Below, piece after piece: positions 3,130 through 19,976 of a stretch of DNA of 20,000 nucleotides. The notes below the pieces were generated by a model, which was not told where the DNA came from, made no database searches, and saw only the letters and a list, made by a program, of their open reading frames with translations. The position numbers and the translations under genes are program-made. Position 1 is the first letter of the stretch; every line of letters starts with the position of its first letter. The DNA comes from an uncultured virus (IMG/VR IMGVR_UViG_3300002231_000147) (lineage: Duplodnaviria; Heunggongvirae; Uroviricota; Caudoviricetes): positions 55,809-75,808 of the IMG/VR virus record IMGVR_UViG_3300002231_000147. One strand, given 5' to 3'.

Positions 3130-4017
3130 ATGTCAGAACCACTTTCAGCATATTATTCCACTCATTTGAATTCACGAGTTGATTCAATCGAGAAGTTGGC
3201 AACACGAAACTTACGTTTTCTTGGTTGTCCACTCATCAAACTAGAACTAGCTAAGGATATGGCATATGAAGCTATTTCTAAAGCAGTTGAGCTTTATACG
3301 CAATACACTGAGCCTGATAGGGAATTCTTGTTATTTGACTCTGAGTTATATGAAGAGGGTCGAGGTATTAATATTGAAGCACTTATCAACAATACTCCTG
3401 AGTTATCCTCAACTATCGATCCAGATGATCCTGAATCAGTTAGAGCTTGGGATACGGATTTACAAGATTATCGTAAGGTTATCGACGTTGTTAATGTTGA
3501 AGAAGGTGAGAATCAGGGAACAAACATCCTATTCACTATGCAATATGCTATGGTGCAGCAAATGGGTGCTATGATGCACTCATCTGGACTAAAGAAGGGG
3601 TTTGACCTTGTTACATGGTATAATATGAATGAATTCCTTGAGCTACGTAATAAGATGTTAGCTCTTAAGACATTTTCTAGGTTTGATCAGAATACACAGA
3701 TGTTAAGATTATTCCCTGAACCAAGTAACGATGGTTCTGGTAAATATTGGGCATTGGTTGAATGCTACTTGGAACCACGTTTCCGTGATTGTTTAAAGAA
3801 TCACTTTGTTCAATCATATTCACTAGCATTGATGAAGATTATGATTGGTAATGTTCGTGGTAAGTTCAATGGTGTTAATCTATTAGGTAACGGGACATTA
3901 AATTACAATGATATGCTACAGCAAGGTTTGACGGAGAAAGAAAAACTCGAAGAACAACTACTCAATGGAACAGGTGGATTCGTAAATGGTGCTCCACCAG
4001 CATTCCTTGTATTCTAA
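3130..4017 (+). CDS. gp13: T4 gp13-like neck protein
   Basis: LRFLGCPLIKLEL...AISKAVELY N-terminus; C-terminal YSLALMKIMIGNVRGKFNGVNLLGNGTLNYNDMLQQGLTEKEKLEEQL...PPAFLV typical of gp13; ATAAATA at 3118-3124. Confidence 0.8.
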   Translation: MSEPLSAYYSTHLNSRVDSIEKLATRNLRFLGCPLIKLELAKDMAYEAISKAVELYTQYTEPDREFLLFDSELYEEGRGINIEALINNTPELSSTIDPDDPESVRAWDTDLQDYRKVIDVVNVEEGENQGTNILFTMQYAMVQQMGAMMHSSGLKKGFDLVTWYNMNEFLELRNKMLALKTFSRFDQNTQMLRLFPEPSNDGSGKYWALVECYLEPRFRDCLKNHFVQSYSLALMKIMIGNVRGKFNGVNLLGNGTLNYNDMLQQGLTEKEKLEEQLLNGTGGFVNGAPPAFLVF

Positions 4018-4018
4018 T

Positions 4019-4568
4019 ATGAAAAAATTTATAGATGTATATTACGAAGGGTTACTTAGTGGTATATCTGATGGTAAGACTATCTCAGATATAGCTAAGA
4101 AGCATGGCGTAAAGTATAATCAGATTGTTACACAACTCCGTAAGGGTCGTAGAGTTGAAATGGAGNATACAAAGAGTAAGGATATTGCTATGCGTATTGC
4201 TTTAGATCATCTCATGGAAGACCCAGACTATTATGATAAGTTAGCGACAATAGAAGAGGGTGTATATTCGACAATGGAGGGCGTGGATGTTACCTAATGG
4301 TAAGTATATCCCAAATCATAGTGGTGAAGGTCATTATGGCTCCCTTAGACGTTTAACAAACGAACCCAAACCATCATTTGAGGTGGTGTTTAAAAAAGGT
4401 TGGCAACGTATTGTTTCGATAGGGGAAAACCTATATGCAAATAATTCAATGGTGCGACCAAATGCACGACAAATTTCAGAACTCAAGGATTTGGTTATTG
4501 AGAATAATAAAAACGAGCTACTTTGGGATAACGATTCTGAAGATAGGGTAATATGGAGAAATGAGTAG
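4019..4568 (+). CDS. Hypothetical protein, DUF5661-like N-terminal domain; probably one gene with a +1 insertion at ~4258
   Basis: ATG at 4019; motif G.RVEMExT...IA.RIALDHLMEDPDYYDKL; removing one G from gaagagggtg fuses it to ORF 4260..4568 (length 550 = 3n+1). Confidence 0.6.
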
Positions 4569-5702: not shown

Positions 5703-6382
5703 ATGAATAACGCATTAAAGTTGATAGTTGAAGAAGTGGATTTCGATTCATTCCAATATTTAGTAGAAGAAAAGAACTCTAAGTCTGACCCTAAGTATTA
5801 TATTGAGGGTCCAATGATCCTTTTGGATGAACAGAACCAGAATGGTCGTGTATACGAAGCGGGTGAGATGAACCCAGCGGTTGAGCGGTATATTAAANNA
5901 TTTGTAGAAACGAATAGTGCGTTGGGTGAAATGAATCACCCTAATAATCCAGACGTTAATCCAGAACGTGCATGTGATAGAATTGTAATCAACTACGTCA
6001 GGAGGGTAATCACTGGATTGGAAAGGCTGTTTGTCTTTCTACACCTATGGGTAAACTTCAAGAGTCTCTAATCCGTGATGGTGTGAGACTTGGTAAGTCA
6101 ACACGTTGCCTTGGTCAACTCGTGGAACGTAATGGATGTAATGTTGTTATGTCTCCTAATATGATAGCTGTTGATACAGTTATGAACCCAAGTGGTCAAG
6201 GTAAGAATGTATCATGCTTTGTTAACGGTATTCTAGAAAATAAGGAATGGAATATCAATTATAATAACGGCAATGAAGAAATATATGATGCGTTCGAAAA
6301 CAATCTTTCAACCCTTCCTAAAAAGGAATTAGATAAGTATCTAACAGAACAAATTCTTAAGTTCGTTAGTGCATTGCGTTAA
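5703..6382 (+). CDS. gp21: Prohead core protease (frameshift artefact near 5985-5992)
   Basis: YYIEG..NQNGRVY, ALGEMNHP (catalytic His), HWIGKAV.LSTPMG in the shifted frame, GVRLGKSTRCLG (catalytic Ser), AVDTVMNPS. Confidence 0.93.
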
Positions 6383-6383
6383 T

Positions 6384-6698
6384 ATGACACCTTTAAATAC
6401 ATTTTTAAAGGATATTCAAGTTATCGAGGAATCTATCAACGACTATGTTGGTATTTTAGAGGAAGAGGATCAATATGTTAATAATCCCCAAGTAAAATCT
6501 CAAGAAAATAAACGAGTATCTAAATATTTCATGAAGCGATCTGACTTTGATCGTCATATTGAAAGTGGAGTTATCACATGGAATAAAATGCATGATGATG
6601 GTGGTGGTGACGTTAGAATAGGAACTAATATCCCAGCAAATGCAGTATATTTCGAAGGAGATGTTGTGTATTTCGAAGGTGAAATAGTAATTAACTAA
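6384..6698 (+). CDS. Hypothetical protein (possible virion protein)
   Basis: ATG at 6384 directly after the gp21 stop; acidic N-terminus; C-terminal tandem YFEGDVV/YFEGEIV. Confidence 0.55.
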   Translation: MTPLNTFLKDIQVIEESINDYVGILEEEDQYVNNPQVKSQENKRVSKYFMKRSDFDRHIESGVITWNKMHDDGGGDVRIGTNIPANAVYFEGDVVYFEGEIVIN

Positions 6699-6715
6699 AA
6701 ATAAATAATCATAAC

Positions 6716-8237
6716 ATGGCTATACAATTCTCAGAAGTAATTAAACAAGGTGGTGGAACAATGGAACTTAATGTCCTTGATCCAACTCAAACAGGTGTAG
6801 ATGCATCTATTTCAACAATTGGGACATCTACCGACAATAAGCAGTGGGTTAAAGTTGGTGCATTAGCTACTGATTGGAGACAAATTTTATCAAGTGAAGA
6901 AGATGGATCATANTTAGCTACTATCGAATTAGTTGATGTTACCGAGACTACTCCATCTACAAATGTATTAGGTGTTAAATATAACAAACCTACTCTCGGT
7001 GATGGTGAAACAGTTGGTGGTTTACCAATTGTTATGCAATCTAATTTACCACCCCAAACCTTAATCGGAACAGCTACTGATGTATTCATGGTGAACAGCA
7101 CTACGCTGTTACCTGCTGACGTTCCACTACTACCAACAAGTTTATATATTGGTAATAGTGTTACTGACATTGGCGCAAATACTTTCGACATTGAGGTTAC
7201 TTTAGAAGGTAGTTTAGCAATTCCAGATTCGGTTACTTCAATTGGTGATTATGCGTTTAACGATTGTTCTGGTTTCGATGGAACACTAACACTTGGTAAC
7301 TCACTTACTACGATTGGAGATAGTGCTTTTAGGGATTGTAGTAGCTTCATTGGTGAATTAACAATCCCAGATTCAGTTACTTCGATTGAATTAAATACTT
7401 TTAGAGGTTGCAGTAGCTTCACAGGTAGTTTAACAATTCCAGATTCAGTTACTACGATTGGAGATAGTGACTTTCAGACTATGTTCTAGTTTCACTGGAA
7501 CATTAACACTTGGTAACTCAATTACTTCGATTGAGACCGCTGCTTTCGCTGGTTGTTTTGGTTTTACTGGAGGATTAACAATTCCAGATTCAGTTACTTC
7601 GATTGGAATAAACGCTTTCGTAAGCTGTTCTGGTTTCGATGGAACACTAACACTTCCTACAAATCCATCATTTACTGCGATTGCCTCTAACACTTTCAAC
7701 GGTTGTAGTGGATTCGTCGGTAGTTTAACAATTCCAGATTCAGTTACTTCGATTGGAAATAATGCTTTCGATTCATGTCTGGGTTTCAATGGAACACTAA
7801 CACTTCCTACAAATCCATCATTTACTACAATTGAGGATAATGTATTTAACGGATGTTCTAATTTCACAGGCAACTTAACTATCCCTGATAGTGTAACAGA
7901 TATTGGAACAGACGCTTTCAACGATTGTAATGACTTCAATGGAACGTTAACACTCGGTAACTCACTCACTGATATCGGAAGTGGGGCTTTCCGAAATTGT
8001 TTTGGATTTATAGGCACGTTATCAATTCCAAGTTCAGTTAATCAAATTAGAAATAGTGCTTTTAGGGCTATGGTTAGTGTTACTCGCATTGAGATACATG
8101 CTACAGTAGCACCTACAATCAACGCTGCTGCATTTGCTGATATGACTAGTGTAAGTCCTGCTGAAATACACGTTCCATCTGGCGCAACAGGTTATGCCGC
8201 ATCTTACGATGGTTTAACCGTGGTTTATGACCTGTAA
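6716..8237 (+). CDS. BspA/TpLRR-type leucine-rich repeat protein, copy 1 (~506 aa, 13 repeats; extra A at ~7470 splits the ORF)
   Basis: Repeats LTIPDSVTSIGxxAFxxCxxFTG; comparison with copy 2 (gataatgctttc vs gatagtgactttc) pinpoints the inserted base; TAAATA box upstream. Confidence 0.9.
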
Positions 8238-8266: not shown

Positions 8267-8839
8267 ATGAAAGACGCATTAGTAAATATAGAATATAAAC
8301 ACATTAGTCGTGTAGATGAAGATGGTTCAATAACAGATATCCCAGAAGGTTATGAAGTTGTCTCGATCTCAAACGTAAAAGCTGCTGAATTNGAAGCATC
8401 TGCTGAATCATTATACTTAGTTGATGGCGAATTAAAGAACCAAGATGAGATGGATGAAATTATTTCTACAGAGCGTAAGGAATCTCGATTCCAGTCGAAT
8501 GTTGAATTTTTCAAATCTCGTAAGATTCGAAAAATCAAGTTAGCTCGCGATACTGAATACAAATCAATCTTAGTAACATCTGATGGACTCCATTTCAAAG
8601 CTGATTTGGAAACAATCATAGATGTTAAATCGATTATCGAGATGTTACCAGATGGTGGAAGCTACGCTGATTATAAATGCGCAGACGGAACTTATAACAC
8701 GGTTACTAAAGAGCAGTTTAAAACTGCTATTACCGAGGGTATTACTCGTAAGGGTATGGTCTTCGCTAAAGAGAAGGCGTTAGATGATGCTATTGAAGCA
8801 GCGACATCATTCGCTGAACTCGATAGTATCGTATGGTAA
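8267..8839 (+). CDS. DUF4376-like / fibre-assembly-chaperone-like protein
   Basis: KIKLARD...FKADLET...YKCADGT..VTKEQF...KEKALDDAIEAATSFAELDSIVW C-terminus, a pattern typical of proteins encoded beside phage fibre genes. Confidence 0.65.
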   Translation: MKDALVNIEYKHISRVDEDGSITDIPEGYEVVSISNVKAAEXEASAESLYLVDGELKNQDEMDEIISTERKESRFQSNVEFFKSRKIRKIKLARDTEYKSILVTSDGLHFKADLETIIDVKSIIEMLPDGGSYADYKCADGTYNTVTKEQFKTAITEGITRKGMVFAKEKALDDAIEAATSFAELDSIVW

Positions 8840-8864
8840 TAAATTAACACTAAATAATCATAAC

Positions 8865-9870
8865 ATGGCTATACAATTCTCAGAAGTAATTAAACAAGGT
8901 GGTGGAACAATGGAACTTAATGTCCTTGATCCATCATCATCAGGTGTAGATGCATCTATTTCAACAATCGGAACATCCACTGATAATAAACAGTGGGTTA
9001 AAATCGGTGTATTAGATACGGACTGGCGACAAATCTTATCAAGTGAAGAAGAGTGGGACATATTTAGCTAATATCAAATTAGTTGATGTTACCGAGACTA
9101 CTCCATCTACAAATGTATTAGGTGTTAAATACAACAAACCTACTCTCGGTGATGGTGACGCAGTTGGTGGTTTACCAATTGCTATGCAATCTGATTTACA
9201 ATCTCAAACTTTAATTGGAACAGCGACTGGAACATTAATGCTTACTACACCTACACTGTCACCTGCTGACATTCCACTACTACCAACAAGTTTACATATT
9301 GGTAATAGTGTTACCGACATTAGCGCAAATACTTTTGATACTGAGGTTACTTTAGAAGGTAGTTTAACAATTCCAGATTCAGTTACTTCAATTGGAATAA
9401 ATGCGTTTAGTGGATGCACTGGTTTCACAGGTAGTTTAACACTTAGTAACTCACTTGTCGCTATCAACGACGATACTTTTTACGGATGCACAGGTTTCAC
9501 TGGTAGTTTAACAATTCCAGATTCAGTTACTACGATTGGAATAAATGCTTTCAGGGAATGCAATAGCTTCACTGGTGAATTAACAATTCCAGATTCAGTT
9601 ACTACGTTTGGAGATAATGCTTTCAGACTATGTTCTAGTTTCACTGGAACATTAACAATTCCAGATTCAGTTACTTCGATTGGTAATGCTTCTTTCGCGG
9701 GTATGGTTGGTGTTACTCGCATTGAGATATATGCTACAGTAGCACCTACAATCACCCCATCTTCATTTAATAGTATGCCTGGTGTAAGTCCTGCTGAAAT
9801 ACACGTTCCATCTGGCGCAACAGGTTATGATGCATCTTATAGTGGTTTAACCGTGGTTTATGATCTATAA
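8865..9870 (+). CDS. BspA-type LRR protein, copy 2 (~334 aa, 6 repeats; +1 frameshift at ~9051-9060)
   Basis: Same start MAIQFSEVIKQGGGTMELNVLDP and same end EIHVPSGATGY..SY.GLTVVYDL as copy 1. Confidence 0.9.
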
Positions 9871-11087: not shown

Positions 11088-12545
11088 ATGAATAAACCAT
11101 CACAATCTTATATCGGTAGAGACCGTGCTTCTGCACTTCTCTCCAAGTGGGGTAAGGTATTGGACTATTCTTCTGAAAAGGTAAAGCCTATCGAAGAAAG
11201 TAACTTACGTCTTAACACAGCGATTCTTCTTGAAAACCAAGAAGCATGGTGCAAGGAAAACGGTGGCGTTATCAATGAAGCAAATTCTGTTTCAGGTGGC
11301 GCACTCGGACCAAATGCAGGTGCTGGGTTAGGAACTAACACTGCCAACCAATTCTCATCCGACTCTTACGCATCTGGTGACGCTCGTCTACCAAAGGTGC
11401 TTATCCCAATGATTCGTAGAACGTTCCCAGAACTTATCACGAATGAAATCGTAGGTGTTCAGCCAATGTCAGGTCCAGTAGGTCTTGCTTTCGCTCTTCG
11501 CTACAAGTATGAAGCTGATCCACTCGGTGGTTCTGGTTATCACGGTGATTCTCGCCCATCCGCTGCTACAGCTGACGCTGACGGTAAGGAAGCTGGTTGG
11601 AACTATCTTGATTCCCGTTTCACAGGAACTGAATCTGATCAACTTTCTGGTGATGCAGCTGGTGACTTCCACGTTGCTGACTCTGATAAGGGTGTAGCTG
11701 ATCTTCTTAAGAACTTCGAGCTTAATGACAACATTCCACAAATGGTGATCTCTTTCGAGAAGACTGCTGTTGAAGCTGGAACTCGTCGCCTCGCAGCTAA
11801 GTGGTCAGTAGAACTCGAACAAGACGTTCGTAACATGAACGGTATTGATATCGACAACGAAATGACTAATGCAATGTCATACGAAATCCAAGCGGAAATT
11901 GACCGTGAAATGATTATGCGTATGATTCAAGTAACTCTTACTGCTGGTCGTGGTCGCGGTTATACAATCTGGGAGCCAGCTTCTGCTGATGCTCGTTGGT
12001 TGGGTGAGCGTAATCGCCACTTCTATCAAAAGGTTCTTGTTGAAGCTAACCGTGTTGCTATCCGTAACAGACGTGGTTCCGCAAACTTCATCGTAGCAAC
12101 TCCAAATGTTTGTGCAATGATTGAAGCTCTTCCAGAGTTTGAATTCATGCCAGTTAACGGTAACGTTAACACACAACCAGTAGGTATCGCTAAGCTTGGA
12201 ACACTTGCAGGACGTTTCAACGTATACCGTGACACAAGAACTGAAGCTCAATACCAATATGGTGAGCGTTCCGCAGCACAAGCTGTTGACTACGCACTAC
12301 TTGGTTATAAGGGTCCAGAATTCTTCGACACAGGTATTATCTATTGCCCATACATTCCAGTTATGGTTCAAAGAACAATCGATCCTGTTCGCTTCAATCC
12401 AATCACAGGTCTCATGACTCGTTATGGTGTTGTTGATCATCTCTTCGGTGCTGATCTCTTCTACCACACAATTATCGTGAAGAACCTTGATGTAGCGTTC
12501 ACACCAGGTGAAACATCCGTGTTCATGCCTGATCTCTACGTCTAA
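11088..12545 (+). CDS. gp23: Major capsid protein
   Basis: LLSKW..VLD, TAILLENQE, LIPMIRRTFPELI..EIVGVQPMSGPVGLAFALR, VEAGTRRLAAKWSVELEQD, EIQAEIDRE, GYKG...DTGIIYCPYIP, FNP..GLMTRYG. Confidence 0.98.
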   Translation: MNKPSQSYIGRDRASALLSKWGKVLDYSSEKVKPIEESNLRLNTAILLENQEAWCKENGGVINEANSVSGGALGPNAGAGLGTNTANQFSSDSYASGDARLPKVLIPMIRRTFPELITNEIVGVQPMSGPVGLAFALRYKYEADPLGGSGYHGDSRPSAATADADGKEAGWNYLDSRFTGTESDQLSGDAAGDFHVADSDKGVADLLKNFELNDNIPQMVISFEKTAVEAGTRRLAAKWSVELEQDVRNMNGIDIDNEMTNAMSYEIQAEIDREMIMRMIQVTLTAGRGRGYTIWEPASADARWLGERNRHFYQKVLVEANRVAIRNRRGSANFIVATPNVCAMIEALPEFEFMPVNGNVNTQPVGIAKLGTLAGRFNVYRDTRTEAQYQYGERSAAQAVDYALLGYKGPEFFDTGIIYCPYIPVMVQRTIDPVRFNPITGLMTRYGVVDHLFGADLFYHTIIVKNLDVAFTPGETSVFMPDLYV

Positions 12546-12638: not shown

Positions 12639-13079
12639 ATGAATATTACTCCATATATATTTTTAGATGATGAGCGTGATCCATATAAGGTATCACATGT
12701 TCAATTACCACTCCTACCGTGGACTGTAGTTCGCAACTATACTGATTTTGTTAGAATAATTGAACAATATTATATTGACTTCAACAAACTTCCTGAATTT
12801 ATCGCATTTGATCACGACTTAGCTCCTGAGCATTATAGACAGTCTATGTATAACCCTGATGAACATTATTCTGATTATTATACAAATGGAACATTCCTTG
12901 AGAAGACTGGATATGATGCGGCAAAGTGGTTAATCGAGTTTTGTGATAAAAAAGGTCTTGACATTCCTGAATATATGGTTCATTCCATGAATCCTATAGG
13001 CAAGAAGAATATCATTTCGATAATCGAGTCCTATAATAAAATCAAAAAATTAACAATAAACAAAAAGGAAACAAAATGA
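12639..13079 (+). CDS. Cyclic-phosphate-processing receiver-domain protein
   Basis: IFLDDERDP..W.VVRNY..F, FIAFDHDL, TGYDAAKWL, VHSMNPIG..NI. Confidence 0.8.
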   Translation: MNITPYIFLDDERDPYKVSHVQLPLLPWTVVRNYTDFVRIIEQYYIDFNKLPEFIAFDHDLAPEHYRQSMYNPDEHYSDYYTNGTFLEKTGYDAAKWLIEFCDKKGLDIPEYMVHSMNPIGKKNIISIIESYNKIKKLTINKKETK

Positions 13080-13366
13080 TCTCACTGAAACAAAAAATCT
13101 TTCGCGCAATGGTAATCCTCCAAAGTGGACACTCAGGTAGTCTATTACTCAATGCTGAAAACACTGAGGATGCTATCAAGCAGGTTAATAATAAGGGCTA
13201 TCGCCTAATTGAAGTGACTACAACAAGTCGCAGAAAGGATATGGATGGTAACGAAATCACGATGGATATAAAACCGCTTATCGATGTAAGTGGTGTCAAC
13301 TTCAGTCTATTTGAACGACTATTTCCGTTGACTAACTTCCGTAATTACTGTGGAGCAGGTAAATAA
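13076..13366 (+). CDS. Hypothetical protein
   Basis: 96-aa ORF, ATGA overlap with the previous stop, AAGGA upstream. Confidence 0.6.
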   Translation: MISLKQKIFRAMVILQSGHSGSLLLNAENTEDAIKQVNNKGYRLIEVTTTSRRKDMDGNEITMDIKPLIDVSGVNFSLFERLFPLTNFRNYCGAGK

Positions 13367-13657
13367 ATGAAAAAAATATTCCCAGATTTAGCTGAACGTG
13401 CTATTGAGTGCGCAAAATTGATTGGTCCAGAGACGACAAAGTATACTGAATGGTATATTGATCAAGTTAATAATCATGGACTACTTAGTGTTAGTTTCAC
13501 GACTAAAGATAGTATCGATGTGTTCTTAGATACGGATATTGATGATGTCCTTGCTGGGAAATTTCCTGATCGTAAAAAAATAGATACAGAAGAGTTCTTT
13601 AAAGAGGTAAACGCGATGCATAATGCACCTAGTTTACCACTCCCGAAAGATTTCTGA
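13367..13657 (+). CDS. Hypothetical protein
   Basis: 96-aa ORF abutting the previous stop (TAAATG). Confidence 0.6.
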   Translation: MKKIFPDLAERAIECAKLIGPETTKYTEWYIDQVNNHGLLSVSFTTKDSIDVFLDTDIDDVLAGKFPDRKKIDTEEFFKEVNAMHNAPSLPLPKDF

Positions 13658-13666
13658 ATTTAACAC

Positions 13667-13696
13667 TTGACGTAATTAAACAGATATGTATAAATA
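13667..13696 (+). promoter_or_regulatory. Promoter of the NAD-salvage cluster: TTGACG-N16-TATAAATA
   Basis: ttgacg 13667-13672, TATAAATA 13689-13696; same architecture as the 2500-2529 promoter. Confidence 0.65.
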
Positions 13697-13741
13697 ATTA
13701 CTCAAGATATTGATAAAACCCGTTGGAGTTATCCAACACAA

Positions 13742-13754
13742 CTAGATATAGATA
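13742..13754 (+). promoter_or_regulatory. CTAGATATAGATA motif copy 1 (last A is the A of the ATG)
   Basis: Exact 13-mer shared with 14841-14853 and 15792-15804. Confidence 0.75.
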
Positions 13755-14812
13755 TGTATAAAAATAAAGTAGACGCTATTAACCATAGTGATCTTAAGAT
13801 CAACATGGTTGCAACAGGTGGAGGAACTGATTTTATCGGTGAATTCCTATCCTATGGTGGTGGAAGTGCCACTATTTTAAATTACGAGGTTCCATATAGT
13901 ATGGAAGCTCATGAAAAATATGTTGATCGTAAGATTGACTATAGGTTCGTATCGGAACGAGCCGCTTATGAATTAGCTAAGGCAGCTTATCGAAAGGGTA
14001 AGTATGATGACTATGATAACCTATTGGGTGTCAGTGTTACAGCTTCGCTAATGAAGACTGAGGGTGAGCGTGAAGGTCGAGTAAACCAGTTTTATATTGG
14101 TGTATCGGATGGTCAAAAAGTTGATGTTTATCATATCATAATTGACAAAGGAGAGTTCGACTTTCGCCAATCTCAAGAGAAATACATTACATGGGCATTG
14201 ATTGATATTCTTGATCCACGTATTACACCACAAAATAAGTTCAAGAGCGTTAAGAAGACTTATTTCCATAATCCAGTTGGGTTAACAAGAAATAAATTAG
14301 TCCGTGCTGATCTTCCCACATGTTTCTTCTTGGGGTTCGTTTAATCCTATCCATGAGGGTCATATTGGTATTCACGATATCCTTGAACAGAGGTTCTTTG
14401 ATCCTGAAAACATCTATTTCGAACGTTCGTATAATACACGTGGTAAAGGTAACGTGAATATGAAGGATATTATCGCGATAACAACACATGATTTGTGGAA
14501 ACCTAAATATAATCTAATTGGCACGGAATTTCCACTGATCGTAGATAAAATTGGTAGATTCCGTGAACTTGGATTCACCAAAATCGGTATCGCTATTGGT
14601 ATCGACACATGGGTTCGATTTTATTGCTGATTTGATGGATGATGAATATAATGATCATCGTGATACATTAAAGAATGTCCGATTCTATGTATTCAACCGT
14701 GGCAATGCTACCAAATTTGATGATCACGGTCTAAACGCGAAATTTATTGAAGATTACAACATCAACATGAGTAGCACAGAAAATCCGAAATAAACAGTTG
14801 ACAGACAAGTAA
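13754..14812 (+). CDS. CinA/PncC-like domain fused to a NadD-like HxGH nucleotidyltransferase (3 single-base insertions at ~14333, ~14620, ~14780)
   Basis: N-terminal VATGGG..F...L...GGS.T....VPYS, VSERAAYELAKAA, GVSVTASL (CinA C-terminal fold); corrected C-terminal FLGSFNPIHEGH, IAIGIDTW.RF, FYVFNR, INMSSTEIRNKQLTDK*. Confidence 0.8.
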
Positions 14813-14840
14813 AGTCAGTCCAACATGAATTCAAATTAAC

Positions 14841-14853
14841 CTAGATATAGATA
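14841..14853 (+). promoter_or_regulatory. CTAGATATAGATA motif copy 2 (6 nt before ATG 14860)
   Basis: Exact 13-mer repeat. Confidence 0.75.
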
Positions 14854-14859
14854 AACAAA

Positions 14860-15767
14860 ATGAATAAACAAACTAAAACAGACGTTGGCGTAATTATCGC
14901 ACGTTTCCAAATTCCATACTTGCATGAAGCATTCGTGGAACTAATTCAGGGTGTAGTAGATCAACATGATAACACAGTTATTATGCTTGGACTAAGTGCT
15001 ATCCCCTTCGACTAAAAATAATCCATTTGGATTTTAAAGCACGAGCTAAAATGATCTCTGCTAAATTTCCAGATGTTACAATTCTTTTCCTAAAGGATGT
15101 GGCATCTGATGAACTATGGAGTAGCAATCTTGATTACAACCTATCTAATGTGGTTGATACTCATCAAAGTGTTACACTATATGGTAGTCGCAATACAGTA
15201 TCTAATCGATACACTGGTCGATATGATGTTGAGGAACTTGATACAGGTCGTATGATTTCCTATGATGAATTATGCAAGAAGGTTATTAACAAGCCTGTAT
15301 ATAATGATGATTTCCGTGCGGGAGTTATTTGGGCATTGAATAATAAATACCCTACAAGTTTCACAACTGTAGATATTGTAATTATCGATGATACTGGAAA
15401 GGGTCGTAGAGTCCTTCTAGGTCGTAAGCGCAATGAAACCAAATATCGCTTGGTTGGTGGTTTCGCTGATCCAAAGGATAATAGCTTTGAAGATGCTGCA
15501 CTACGTGAAGCCGAAGAGGAAACTACTCTTACATTAACTGATCCAAAATATGTGGGATCGTTTAAGATCGATGATTGGCGTTACCGTCATGAGGTTGACA
15601 AGATCAAGACAGCGTTGTTCACTGTTCAATACGTTGAGGGAACACCTGAAGCCAAGGATGATATCGTGGAAGTCCGTTGGTTCAAATATAATGAATTAAA
15701 TGATGAGATTTTTGTTGACGAACACAAAGTTCTCTTCCACGCTCTAATGGATGCCTTACATGTGTAA
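14860..15767 (+). CDS. nadM: Bifunctional NadM-Nudix (NMN adenylyltransferase-like + ADP-ribose pyrophosphatase); true start 14860, insertions at ~15004 and ~15026
   Basis: VGVIIARFQIPYLHEAF, NPLDFKARAKMI, DELWSSNLD, LYGSR, DFRAGVIWA...YPTSFTTVD, Nudix box GGFADPKDNSFEDAALREAEEET, AKDDIVEVRWF. Confidence 0.88.
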
Positions 15768-15791
15768 GGTGAAATAAATATTAACTTCAAA

Positions 15792-15804
15792 CTAGATATA
15801 GATA
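15792..15804 (+). promoter_or_regulatory. CTAGATATAGATA motif copy 3 (2 nt before ATG 15807)
   Basis: Exact 13-mer repeat. Confidence 0.75.
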
Positions 15805-15806
15805 AA

Positions 15807-17337
15807 ATGAATACAAATACAAAAACAAAATGATGAAAAGGCAACTCTTGTTGACCTAATTCTAAAAACAAACGAACACATCTTAGGTGAGATTGATCCA
15901 ACAACTACAACTGATAGTTATAAGTTCGGTGGTCACTGGAAGATGGAAAAGCGTGGCGCACAGATCACGTTTAGTTACGATGAAGCGCGTAATGGGGCAA
16001 AGTTCCCATATACTCAATGGGTGGGGCTACAATTGATCCTCAAGCGCATTCGTCGTGTAACAATGGATGATGTTGAGAAGTGTGCTATCCTTAGTAAATT
16101 CCACTTGGGTAACAAATCTCATTTCAACTATGAGGGTTGGAAATACATCGTTGAAAAACATGATGGCTACTTGCCATTGCGTATTCGTGCAGTTGATGAA
16201 GGAACTAAGGTTCCCGTTGGTAACGTAATGATGACAATTGAAAACACTGATGAAAAGTGTGCGTGGTTGACAAATTACGTCGAAAGCTTCCTCATGCAGA
16301 ATTGGTATCCTTCGAATGTTGCAACACAGAGTGCAATCATTAAGGAAATTATTGATCGTAACTATGAGCGTAGTAGTGATCACACAGCAGAAGAGCGAGC
16401 ATTTAACAGTAAGTTCTTGCTTCATGATTTCGGTCTACGTGCTGCAACTTGTCCAGAAGCTGGTGCAATCGGTGGTTTCGGACATGCAACAAACGGGCTT
16501 GGTAGTGATACAGTTCCCGCATTCATCTTAGCTGTTAAATATTACAGTGCTGATCCAGAACTACTATTACTTAGTGTTGCTGCAACTGAACACAGCATTG
16601 CTTGCCCATTCGGGTTGGATCAAGAGGGTGAGATGGAATACATTATGCATCAACTTGAACAATTCCCTGATGGTATTCTATCGCTTGTTGGTGATAGTAG
16701 TGATATCGTTCGTTTCACAAAGAATATTTGTGCAATCAAGGAAATTATTATCAAACGTTGGGAAGAAGGTGAACAGCCACTCAACCGCTTGGTTATTCGT
16801 CCTGATAGCCCACGTTGGAAGGGTGATACACCATACGAACAGGTTAAGTGGATCATGGATACACTATGGGACACCTTTGGTGGTAGTATCAATAGCAAGG
16901 GTAGGCGTGTGCTTCATCCAGCGGTTGGTGTCATCTACGGTGATGGGTTGAGTCTCGAAGAGATTGAATTCCTTTATGATAACATGGCTGATCATTATGA
17001 CATTTACAATGTTGTTGTCGGTCAAGGTGGTGGACTCATGCAGAAACATGATCGTGATACTCAACGCAAGGCAATCAAATGCAGTGCTCAGAAGCGCGAT
17101 GGTGTATGGGTTGATGTTGCCAAGAAGCCATTGGATGAAACCAAAGCAAGTAAGAAGGGTCGCCTGACACTTATCTTTGATGAAGATAATGGTTATCAAA
17201 CAATCCTTATTGAAGATTTGGGTGATCGTGAAGAACTTCTAAAGGATCGCTTCCTAAATGGTGCGCTTCCTAATCAGACAACCTTAGCGGAAATTCGCAC
17301 TATCGCTGATAAACCATTCAATTATGAACTACTTTAA
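15807..17337 (+). CDS. nadV: Nicotinamide phosphoribosyltransferase family (NAMPT/NadV); true start 15807 with an extra A near 15828
   Basis: TDSYK (upstream of the ORF-track start), GYLPLRIRAVDEG, WLTNYVES, WYPSNVAT, LHDFGLR, GSDT, AATEHS, IRPDS, IYGDG, GGGLMQK.DRDT..AIKCS, KASKKGRL. Confidence 0.95.
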
Positions 17338-17749
17338 TATCGAACGAGCATTCAAAACCAAGAAGGATCGAGGTTGGGATAAGATTTACATCGCAATTGA
17401 TTTACATGATACTATCTTTAAGGGATATTATCAGAATGATCAAGATTTTAAATTCTATCAATATGCTGAACAGATTCTTCGTCATTGGACTAAGCAGGAT
17501 AATGTAGTATTAATTGCATACACATGTTCCCATGCTAAAGATTTTGAAAGGGTTAATAAATGGATGAACACTAAGGGGATCAATTTCGATTACCTGAATG
17601 AAAATCCTGAATGTGGCAACACTGAGTTAGCTGCATTCCACCAAAAACCATATTTCAATATTCTACTCGAAGATAAGGCAGGATTCGAAGGTGAGACCGA
17701 TTGGGTCTATGTCCTGAGAGAATTGAGACGAATTGGAGAAATCAAATAA
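17324..17749 (+). CDS. HAD-superfamily phosphatase-like protein
   Basis: Motif I IAIDLHDTI, motif II AYTCS, KPYFNILLEDKAG. Confidence 0.75.
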   Translation: MNYFNIERAFKTKKDRGWDKIYIAIDLHDTIFKGYYQNDQDFKFYQYAEQILRHWTKQDNVVLIAYTCSHAKDFERVNKWMNTKGINFDYLNENPECGNTELAAFHQKPYFNILLEDKAGFEGETDWVYVLRELRRIGEIK

Positions 17750-18242: not shown

Positions 18243-18756
18243 ATGAATGAAAATGTAAAAACAATAACCTCCCCAGAACTATACGATCCACGTGATAATA
18301 TAGGTAAGAAAGTATTTTTAGCAGGTAGTATCGAACAAGATACTGCTACTAAATGGCAGACCGACTTGATTGATTATATCAAGCGACATACATCCGATAG
18401 GCGTGTAACGCTATTTAATCCACGTAGAGATGAATGGGATGCTTCTTGGGAACAAGATAAAGAAAATCCTGAATTTTATAAACAAGTCACATGGGAGTTG
18501 GGTGCATTGGATCATGCTGACGTGATCGCATTGTATCTTGATCCAAATACCAAAATCACCAATATCTCTCATAGAATTGGGGATTCATGTGAAGGATAGG
18601 AATCATATCAATGGCACATCAAAGCTTGTTGTATGCTGTCCTAAAGGCTTCTGGCGTAAAGGAAACGTTGACATCACCTGTAGTAGATACGGTGTTCAAT
18701 GCTTCTCGTCCATGGATGCGTGGAAAACTGAAATTGTTAATCGTATTGTGCATTAA
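18243..18756 (+). CDS. Nucleoside 2-deoxyribosyltransferase-like protein (extra A at ~18555)
   Basis: VFLAGSIE..WQ, FNPRRDEWD.SW.Q, QVTWEL.ALD.AD, corrected TKSPISLIELG, VCCPKGFWRKGNVDI. Confidence 0.85.
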
Positions 18757-18758
18757 TT

Positions 18759-19278
18759 ATGAGTGAAACATATAAGAATGGGGATTATAAAAGGTATTAT
18801 ACTGTAGATGAACTACGTATATTCGGGTTCTTTGAAGAACACCGATACCTATCTAATTTCCATAAATGTCCTGTATTGTGGGATGGTCATATGTTCCCTA
18901 GTTCGGAACATGCGTATATGGTAGCAAAGTGTAGATATCGGAACTACGGTAGTTCGGATACTCATTATAATGACCAATTAGCTTCATATATTAAAGATAT
19001 GTCATGTGCTCAAGTAAAGAAATGGGGTCAAATTGTTTATCTGCGTGAAGATTGGGAAGATGTTAAGAATAATATGATGTTTTCTATCTTGTTAGAGAAA
19101 TTTACTAGAAACAAAGATATCCGAGAGAAATTGATCAACACTGGTGATAAGATCATCATCGAAGCAAAACTCATGGGGTGATCAGTGGTGGGGATATGAT
19201 GTAGATGCCAAGAAGGGTGAGAATTATTTAGGACAAACATTAATGAAAGTAAGGGAGATTTTAAAATGGGACCAATAG
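18759..19278 (+). CDS. NADAR (YbiA-like) family protein (extra A at ~19168)
   Basis: YLSNFH, FPSSEHAYMVAK, KKWG..V.LREDWE, KFTRN..IREKLINTGD..IIE, corrected ANSWGDQWWG..GENYLGQTLMKVRE. Confidence 0.9.
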
Positions 19279-19976
19279 ATAAAGAAGGTATGATGCAGGT
19301 TGCTCTCGACTTAACCTTTAGTATTGCTGAGGATGAGACGAAGAGTATTATGGCACAATATGTGAAACTCAATGAAGAGGTGGGCGAACTTGCTGTAGAG
19401 GTGCTTATCCGTGAAGGATTAGAGAAACCAGAAAAAGGTGGTGACGATGGTATATTGGGTGAATGTGTGGATATTGCTCAAATTGCTATGAGTATATTTA
19501 CCAAGGCTGGTGGAACACCTGAAGACTTCATGAAAACACTACTTGAGAAGAATATGAAATGGAATAAATCTATTCAAAAGAGAGAAAGTAGTGTAGCAAA
19601 ATGCCAAGCGTTGATGAATTATAAAGAAGATCAGAAGCGTGCTGATTTGAGTAATAAAGAGGAAGTTGAGATAATCGAAGCTAATCGCCAATCTCATGAA
19701 GCGACTGTAAATGAGGTATTTACATTCACTCAAGATTATATGGGATTTAAGAAAGGATATGTTCTCGACTTAAGTGTAGTTAAAGAAGATGTTAAAAATG
19801 GTTTCAGTGAATATTATTCCCCAATGAGTGGGGGTATTCTATATTACAAGGGAGAAGAAATACCATATGATTATTTTGAATGTAGTGATGAGAATTGGAA
19901 ACATATATATGGAACAAAGATATGGAAAGATCATATTAAAAATTCAAACGATTATGAATTAGGTAGCGGTAGATAA
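19266..19976 (+). CDS. MazG-like all-alpha NTP pyrophosphohydrolase domain plus unknown C-terminal extension
   Basis: KLNEEVGELA...GECVDIAQ (EExxE...ExxD) and KNMKW. Confidence 0.75.
   Translation: MGPIDKEGMMQVALDLTFSIAEDETKSIMAQYVKLNEEVGELAVEVLIREGLEKPEKGGDDGILGECVDIAQIAMSIFTKAGGTPEDFMKTLLEKNMKWNKSIQKRESSVAKCQALMNYKEDQKRADLSNKEEVEIIEANRQSHEATVNEVFTFTQDYMGFKKGYVLDLSVVKEDVKNGFSEYYSPMSGGILYYKGEEIPYDYFECSDENWKHIYGTKIWKDHIKNSNDYELGSGR

Follow-up and report, generated by a model that had tools for sequence, protein, structure and literature searches.

A T4-like phage carries an intact gene for a two-domain protein, CinA-fold in its N-terminal part and NadD-like in its C-terminal part, which probably converts NMN to NAD+ in NadM's stead. 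The gene lies in the window, a stretch of 20,000 nt at the very end of a viral contig from IMG/VR (75.8 kb, CheckV completeness 35%). At 11088-12545 the window encodes a major capsid protein of the Gp23 type, with genes for the portal, head closure and prohead protease upstream of it, and DNA searches with the region gave no match in GenBank phages, near or distant. We propose that NadV would form NMN from nicotinamide and PRPP, and that the C-terminal domain of the fusion would form NAD+ from NMN and ATP, doing the job that NadM has in the NARP2-type pathway of NadV and NadM-Nudix. For the N-terminal domain, the most likely role is binding, but not deamidation, of a phosphoribosyl-pyridine ligand (NMN or a related compound); it may be a capture or regulatory module.

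An intact gene split by homopolymer over-calls

In the deposited contig, the fusion gene (13754..14812, plus strand) is listed as three overlapping ORFs in three frames, at 13754-14344, 14304-14630 and 14551-14793. Each frame junction is a four-base homopolymer with one artefactual base: GGGG at 14332..14335 takes the reading from frame 1 to frame 2, TTTT at 14619..14622 from frame 2 to frame 3, and AAAA at 14780..14783 from frame 3 to frame 1 (all on the plus strand). With these three bases skipped, the gene has 351 codons and a stop at 14810-14812. Re-assembled public contigs (Logan) over 13600-15900 have exactly one base fewer at 14332, 14619 and 14780; this evidence consists of contigs at a depth of 2-4, not of raw reads. 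The extra G, T and A are all absent in the X1 contig, from a 2011 run that may be the source sample, and the extra G is also absent in the X6 contig, from an independent 2024 sample with 12 other differences.

When the gene was read through with an X at each break, the resulting 351 residues gave a one-domain match to the family HMM (positions 4-378 of 380, 198 bits). All of the five intact homologues compared with the window by tblastn crossed from frame 1 to frame 2, and the frame-3 piece was represented by a single weak HSP, from P0001 (E 3.6). Breaks of the same kind are found in neighbouring genes. Single bases at 15003 and 15026 in nadM-nudix are absent in the X3 contig, and one base at 15827 in nadV is absent in the X1 contig; the prohead protease is likewise split between two frames (5703-6068 and 6047-6379), whose products match consecutive profile positions.

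Because the junctions are homopolymers, the Logan contigs are one base shorter, the profile match runs from end to end and the protease is identically split, we conclude that 13754-14812 is a single intact gene and that its three frameshifts reflect over-called homopolymers in the assembly, not pseudogenisation. The suggestion of the earlier note that correction of three insertions would restore one gene of ~351 aa is thereby confirmed. The same note had named true pseudogenisation or separate genes as the case against its reading. A pseudogene or three separate small genes would agree with the three frames of the deposited contig and with another NadV-bearing viral contig, L040, which carries the two domains in two overlapping ORFs, but this explanation is extremely improbable given that the base is missing at all three runs in the re-assembled contigs, at one of them in the independent sample too, that the profile match is continuous, and that like breaks occur in an essential protease, in nadM and in nadV. 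As the contig is rich in homopolymer indels, its gene calls understate its coding content.

The fusion gene is followed directly by nadM-nudix and nadV. The nadM-nudix gene (14860..15767, plus strand) is one gene when single bases are skipped in CCCC (15003-06) and TTT (15026-28). The nadV gene (15807..17337, plus strand) encodes a NAMPT with matches to PF04095, PF18127 and phrog_448, and its first 45 codons are out of frame by one extra A in the run at 15827-15830. The island also contains cREC_REC, NADAR, a nucleoside 2-deoxyribosyltransferase-like gene and a MazG-like gene.

A 13-mer, CTAGATATAGATA, occurs on the plus strand in front of each of the three adjacent genes. The first copy (13742..13754) ends in the A of the fusion start codon, the second (14841..14853) lies 6 nt 5′ of the nadM-nudix ATG (14860), and the third (15792..15804) lies 2 nt 5′ of the likely nadV ATG (15807), so that the spacings to the start codons are 0, 6 and 2 nt. 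The three exact copies compare with 0 expected from 200 shuffles, and the inner 12-mer with up to one mismatch has no further site in the 75.8-kb contig. The sharing of this 13-mer by the three genes, already noticed on first inspection, is thus real, and a link of the fusion to nadM-nudix and nadV is supported by both position and a private 13-mer. In a scan of 13300-17500 for sigma-70 promoters and terminators, the promoter signal was no better than in shuffled sequences.

The two domains of the fusion protein

The NadD-like domain is encoded in two parts on the plus strand, 14334..14618 in frame 2, with GSFNPIHEGH, E.S...K, IVDK and GIDTWVR, and 14620..14781 in frame 3, from VFNR to MSSTE. 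Frame 2 contains GSFNPIHEGH without any correction (its G is X in the read-through), and SSTEIR is obtained on hand-read codons without the extra A, where the raw frame gives SSTENPK followed by a stop and the read-through gives SSTE-X-R. The initial description of a nucleotidyltransferase with both motifs intact therefore stands. In the read-through, the window protein retains both His residues of HxGH, the later Lys, GxDTxxR, VFxR and SSTxxR; the two His residues are at least 90% conserved in a 96-row alignment and invariant in a 13-row alignment.

The family profile matched S. aureus NadD (2h29) over the whole domain (profile positions 214-377, E 3.6e-10) and E. faecium NadD (8aih) with E 5.6e-6, and matches to phosphopantetheine adenylyltransferases were confined to the first ~60 positions. 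PF01467 was found in 13/13 intact members (E<=1, best 6.3e-11) and scored 28.9 bits on the relative L004; on piece B of the window, which comprises 98 aa only, it reached 14.5 bits where the cut-off is 21. Structure prediction, recommended at the outset together with profile searches, gave a NadD/NMNAT fold: the AlphaFold model of the homologue P0002, not of the window protein itself, had a pLDDT of 93.3 and matched the NadD/NMNAT structures 8aih, 3dv2, 1kaq and 1nup with a probability of 1.00. From these motifs and matches, the C-terminal domain is predicted to be an intact NadD-like nucleotidyltransferase of the HxGH/SSTxIR type. It has HxGH, SxTxxR and, by way of P0002, the fold in common with bacterial NadD (2h29, 8aih, 3dv2, 1kaq). 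In contrast to bacterial NadD, the fusion has an additional N-terminal CinA-fold domain and the family has its own E-x-S-x(2)-N-x(2)-K block downstream of HxGH, and the window pieces all score far under the cut-off of the NCBIfam NadD equivalog. The E-x-S..N..K block may resemble yeast Pof1.

The CinA-fold domain (aa 1-160; 13754..14233, plus strand) contains a TGGG loop at aa 21-24, GGGS at aa 35-38, PYS at aa 47-49, ER.GR at aa 105-109, R138 and E142. A model of aa 1-160 of the window protein, built with 96 homologues, reached a pLDDT of 94.3, and all 21 Foldseek matches of this model at E<=1e-3 were CinA-superfamily structures. Pfam CinA (PF02464) gave no match to the window even at E<=10; one member, P0048, passed its cut-off (25.1 vs 23.5 bits) and 2/13 members matched weakly (E ~0.08).

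We compared this domain with the CinA/PncC structures 2a9s, 4ct8 and 6mr3. Residue equivalences were taken from the block definitions given in the accessible part of PMC3855486, with gap-free spacing from P-I/P-II, and also from a HMMER alignment that pairs profile positions 16-84 with residues 27-100 of 2a9s. On this basis, T21, G36, S38, Y48, M50 and H53 of the window correspond to S31, G46, S48, Y58, N60 and K63 of PncC (2A9S numbering), respectively. The window reads MVATGGGT at the place of the PncC AESCTGG, and block P-II reads GGS (GAS in L004 and P0010). Among 97 aligned sequences, the Ser31 equivalent is Thr in 83, Ala in 8 and Ser in 3, being Thr in the window, and the pocket positions G36, S38, Y48 and R138 are conserved in 82, 96, 96 and 96, respectively. 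The Asn60 equivalent is variable in the same alignment. At the position of the general-base Lys63, Lys occurs in 0/97 members; the residues are F in 35, T in 23, L in 17, S in 7, W in 6, M in 3, Y in 2 and H in 1, and the window has His.

In T. thermophilus CinA, the corresponding catalytic residue, Lys-301, is described as 'absolutely conserved' and proposed as the general base of the NMN deamidase, and the phosphate is bound by Gly-284, Ser-286 and Tyr-296, according to the accessible text of PMC4246079; PMC3855486 likewise supports the conserved Lys as general base. Since the residues that hold the NMN phosphate in PncC, namely Gly and Ser of P-II, Tyr of P-III and an Arg, are conserved and the general-base Lys is absent in 97/97 sequences, the phosphate-binding half of the pocket appears to be kept and the chemistry half gone. 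Whereas PncC has AESCTGG in block P-I, the Lys in P-III and block P-VI, the fusion domain has VATGGGT, no Lys (0/97) and no recognisable P-VI (S/T-G-I/V-AGPxGG). It is closer to the inactive CinA paralogues than to active PncC, as far as these are characterised in the accessible part of PMC3855486. Judged on sequence by the family's own criteria, the N-terminal domain is a CinA-fold domain and not a PncC deamidase, which agrees with the earlier note, where a CinA/PncC-like domain without the AESCTGG Ser motif had been recognised; the Ser is replaced by Thr. The family would thus illustrate how nature can reuse a deamidase fold that has lost its catalytic base.

NadM and the fusion beside NadV

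The rebuilding of NAD+ has lately been recognised as a means by which phages counter Thoeris, DSR, SIR2-HerA and other defences of this type. NARP2 comprises the KVP40-type Nampt and Nmnat, which convert nicotinamide and PRPP to NMN and NMN to NAD+, and Nmnat was detectable in 94% of the phages with KVP40-type Nampt (Osterman et al., bioRxiv 10.1101/2024.02.11.579819, as far as the accessible text goes). Because the detected fraction given there is just 94%, there is room for an undetected substitute of Nmnat, and the fusion may account for part of the remaining 6%. Like the Nampt and NadM-Nudix of Vibrio phage KVP40, the window has nadV beside a nucleotidyltransferase and a Nudix domain. NARP2 uses a NadM-type Nmnat, whereas the candidate here combines a NadD-like with a CinA-fold domain and stands in place of NadM at 7/23 NadV loci; the window keeps NadM with HEAF as its motif. 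Thus, NAMPT is found beside a candidate NMN adenylyltransferase in the window, and a NadM with an intact HxGH is not. Two other systems were set aside. NARP3, which is described in Enterobacteriaceae phages as PnuC plus NadR and likewise ends in NMN adenylylation (PMC13464706, accessible part), is a different pathway, with nicotinamide riboside import and a bifunctional NadR-type enzyme but no NAMPT and no CinA-fold domain. The cyanobacterial NMNAT-C has HxGH at residues 16-19 and appears unrelated, no CinA-like domain being described in the accessible part of PMC13036487.

To follow up a co-occurrence analysis suggested in the earlier note, we scanned loci anchored on NadV in 22 viral contigs and the window, 23 in total, so that the counts below apply to NadV-anchored loci and are not a viral census of the family. 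Flanks of 5-6 kb per side were scanned with HMMs of both fusion domains and of Tunturi_5 gp218, split into its NadM and Nudix halves; G000, G001, G403, G404 and W01-W06 were searched as whole records and the remaining NadV loci by their flanks. NadM-Nudix without the fusion was found in 13/23 (L034-L038, L049-L052, L054-L056, L059) and the fusion without NadM-Nudix in 7/23 (L039/G403, L040, G001, L045, L046, which is partial at a contig end, L047 and L053). Two contigs (L057, L058) had neither, and the window alone had both (1/23). As L045-L047 are close kin of G001 (NadV 83-85% identical), the seven contigs with the fusion only represent about four independent lineages.

Two records rated 100% complete by CheckV contain NadV and the fusion without NadM. 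G001 (306 kb) encodes a Nudix domain alone, the fusion and NadV, with no NadM domain, and a PF01467 search of it found nothing besides the fusion. G403 (527 kb) encodes NadV and the fusion with no NadM-Nudix, and the three further PF01467 genes in it encode sugar-nucleotide enzymes resembling HldE/RfaE. Five huge-phage records with NadM-Nudix had no fusion, and a profile search found pieces resembling the C-terminal domain in only two of them. In another huge phage, LR745208, the fusion is present and a NAPRTase-family gene is absent, which speaks against a strict coupling of the fusion to NadV.

These results indicate that, beside NadV, NadM and the fusion hardly ever occur together. The pattern fits a non-orthologous displacement of the NMN adenylyltransferase in a NARP2-type pathway, which is well supported by the genomic context, and the window looks like an intermediate of the displacement. 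The proposal that the fusion replaces NadM is hence supported by comparative genomics, including G001 and G403, as regards the displacement; we infer the reaction from NMN to NAD+ from this context. NARP2 surveys built on Nampt and the KVP40-type Nmnat would overlook the phages that use the fusion.

The HxGH motif of NadM in the window reads HEAF (codons 14923-14934), and the X1, X2 and X3 contigs show no difference over these codons. Thus, the view of nadM as degenerate holds for the change of HxGH to HEAF and fails for the frameshifts, which are artefacts according to the X3 contig. Ten NadM relatives read HEGH, HEVH, HEAH, HQAH, HDGH (twice), HDAH, TEGH, HDVH and HEGQ, and the final His was present in all of eight more NadM proteins of NadV loci. 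This residue is retained by 13/13 NadM proteins from NadV loci without the fusion and by 4/5 GenBank relatives. The NadM with HEGQ belongs to L029, yet its 636-kb record has no fusion, so that a NadM without the final His does not necessarily require a substitute.

Readings of the fusion and its family

If NadM in the window is still a working NMNAT, the fusion would be a redundant or accessory enzyme or a sensor, for example in feedback control via the CinA-like domain. A full-length NadM-Nudix is left after correction of the artefacts, and relatives that look active have G, A or V at the third position of HxGH, with Q at the last position in one relative; but none of the 13 NadM proteins from NadV loci that lack the fusion has lost the final His, and G001 and G403 have no NadM at all, which makes this arrangement quite improbable. 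A rather unlikely alternative is a two-step recycling of NMN, in which the CinA-like domain would be an active non-canonical NMN deamidase using Thr21 and other residues, the NadD-like domain would convert NaMN to NaAD and host NadE would complete NAD+, like the bacterial PncC-NadD-NadE route. The retained G36, S38 and Y48 in the pocket of a CinA fold, the conservative change of Ser31 to Thr, the similarity of the C-terminal domain to NaMN-preferring NadD and the name 'NMN deamidase PncC' given by JGI to one member are in line with this route. Against it, the general-base Lys is missing in 97/97 sequences, with a mostly hydrophobic position in its place (F 35, T 23, L 17), the Asn60 equivalent is likewise unconserved, the fusion stands in for NadM, an enzyme that uses NMN, beside NadV, and no nadE was noticed next to it.

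It is also unlikely that the fusion acts on another ligand, such as an immune signal derived from ADP-ribose or a pyridine nucleotide, or its precursor, and that the link to NadV reflects a shared anti-defence island rather than a pathway. This explanation would suit the accompanying cREC_REC, NADAR, nucleoside 2-deoxyribosyltransferase-like and MazG-like genes, the sporadic occurrence in bacteria and the existence of a fusion without NadV (LR745208). However, it hardly accounts for the near-exclusivity with NadM; moreover, the whole-domain matches are to NadD/NMNAT and to no other nucleotidyltransferases, and a PADLOC match is absent.

For the preferred reading, the adenylylation of NMN by the fusion in place of NadM, the substrate could instead be NaMN, as the best sequence matches of the C-terminal domain are NaMN-preferring NadD enzymes. 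A more specific version, which we put forward as a tentative possibility, is that the displacement has been caught midway in the window: the old NadM, its catalytic His changed to Phe, would be kept for its Nudix half next to its successor, and the CinA-fold domain, a dead deamidase, would capture NMN, shield it and hand it over. If so, the relatives with Nudix alone, the fusion and NadV, or with the fusion and NadV, would be the end states, NMN would be shielded from host PncC before being passed to the adenylyltransferase, and the system would be a substrate-channelling variant of NARP2 that standard Nmnat searches have missed. The family of the successor, with its thousands of clusters, would then consist of NMN adenylyltransferases.

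The fusion is a member of a large, so far uncharacterised enzyme family. A profile of 13 members matched 2,222 representative clusters at E<=1e-30 among 1.84 billion representatives, and among 150 matches listed of the 2,222, 148 covered both domains in one stretch and 2 in two stretches. With the N-terminal piece as query, a word-seeded search limited to longer proteins retrieved 15 sequences of 352-423 aa, PF01467 being present in several; a relative of 417 aa is encoded in a 306-kb phage contig. In the ESM Atlas the members, mostly bacterial, are automatically labelled 'putative CinA C-terminal domain-containing protein', 'cytidylyltransferase family protein' or 'hypothetical protein', and the genomic context described here offers a testable function for proteins so annotated. 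The raw three pieces of the window gave no match over threshold in Pfam, PHROGs, NCBIfam or PADLOC.

Full-text searches of the literature revealed neither an account of a CinA-fold::NadD-like fusion, be it in phages or in other organisms, nor enzyme activity data for any family member. Genes for nadD, nadM and NAMPT feature in a survey of jumbo phages, and the words 'deamidase' and 'CinA' have no occurrence in its accessible part (PMC11662467).

The family is sporadic, being present by profile search in 1/401 Pseudomonadota genomes, namely the genome at the centre of the search itself. With the member P0002 as the tblastn query, 2/50,697 GenBank phage records matched, only one of them over most of the length. 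A related-locus search of genomes with P0004 gave one bacterial locus with unrelated or uninformative neighbours, and a related-locus search with P0015 found none. The same type of search with the window pieces gave L004 as the sole true relative, L003 and L007 being chance matches. In a FastTree tree, in which the origin of the other rows is undefined, seven phage sequences fell in at least three places held apart by starred branches, and the window protein was on a long branch (2.39) in this FastTree-only tree.

Sequence elements at the starts of the NAD genes

Three identical copies of a 13-mer are each located immediately 5′ of the start codon of one NAD gene, at 13742-13754 for the CinA-fold::NadD-like fusion, at 14841-14853 for nadM-nudix and at 15792-15804 for nadV, and the exact 13-mer has no further copy anywhere in the 75.8-kb contig. 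The distance from the 13-mer to the ATG is not constant, as the first copy overlaps that of the fusion by 1 nt, the second lies 6 nt ahead of that of nadM-nudix, and the third lies 2 nt ahead of the likely start of nadV. The 13-mer may represent a promoter, an operator or a translational element. The sequence TATAAATA, which we take to be the T4 late-promoter consensus, is located at 13689-13696, 58 nt 5′ of the fusion start codon.

When Logan contigs of the public sequencing run X3 were compared with 13600-15900, a 5,991-nt contig (depth 53.6) matched the window solely at 13698-13719 and 15797-15818, 22 nt each. Both matches adjoin 13-mer-like motifs and are separated in the X3 contig by 1,945 other letters. 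This contig may derive from a different, commoner phage carrying the same element.

The genes surrounding the NAD genes

The NAD genes form an island with five genes, which encode a cREC_REC domain protein (12639-13079), a phosphoheptose-isomerase-like protein (17324-17749), a nucleoside 2-deoxyribosyltransferase-like protein (18243-18599), a NADAR domain protein (18759-19181) also matching PADLOC PDC-M42C, and a MazG-like protein (19266-19976). It is possible that this island functions in NAD/ADP-ribose counter-defence.

Frame breaks in the contig, and variants among relatives

Overlapping ORFs in differing frames occur in runs at 3-1607, 3130-4568, 5703-6698, 6716-8237 and 8267-9870, and the prohead protease (phrog_207) is split into pieces that cover consecutive profile positions. 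Homopolymer indels seem to be abundant throughout the contig, and therefore its gene calls are unreliable. Directly after NadV, the viral contig L040 (54 kb) carries two overlapping ORFs in differing frames (6454-7035 and 7017-7700) that encode the CinA-like and the NadD-like domain, an arrangement that could reflect either a genuine split into two genes or one more frameshift error.

The NadM-Nudix protein encoded by a 636-kb phage (LR756504.1, 2815-3813) has HEGQ where HxGH is expected, and a search with the family profile did not find the fusion gene in this record. Long N-terminal extensions are present in the fusion-family members P0146, P0016 and P0135; those of P0016 (~300 residues) and P0135 (~190 residues) have no Pfam match, and that of P0146 contains TPR repeats.
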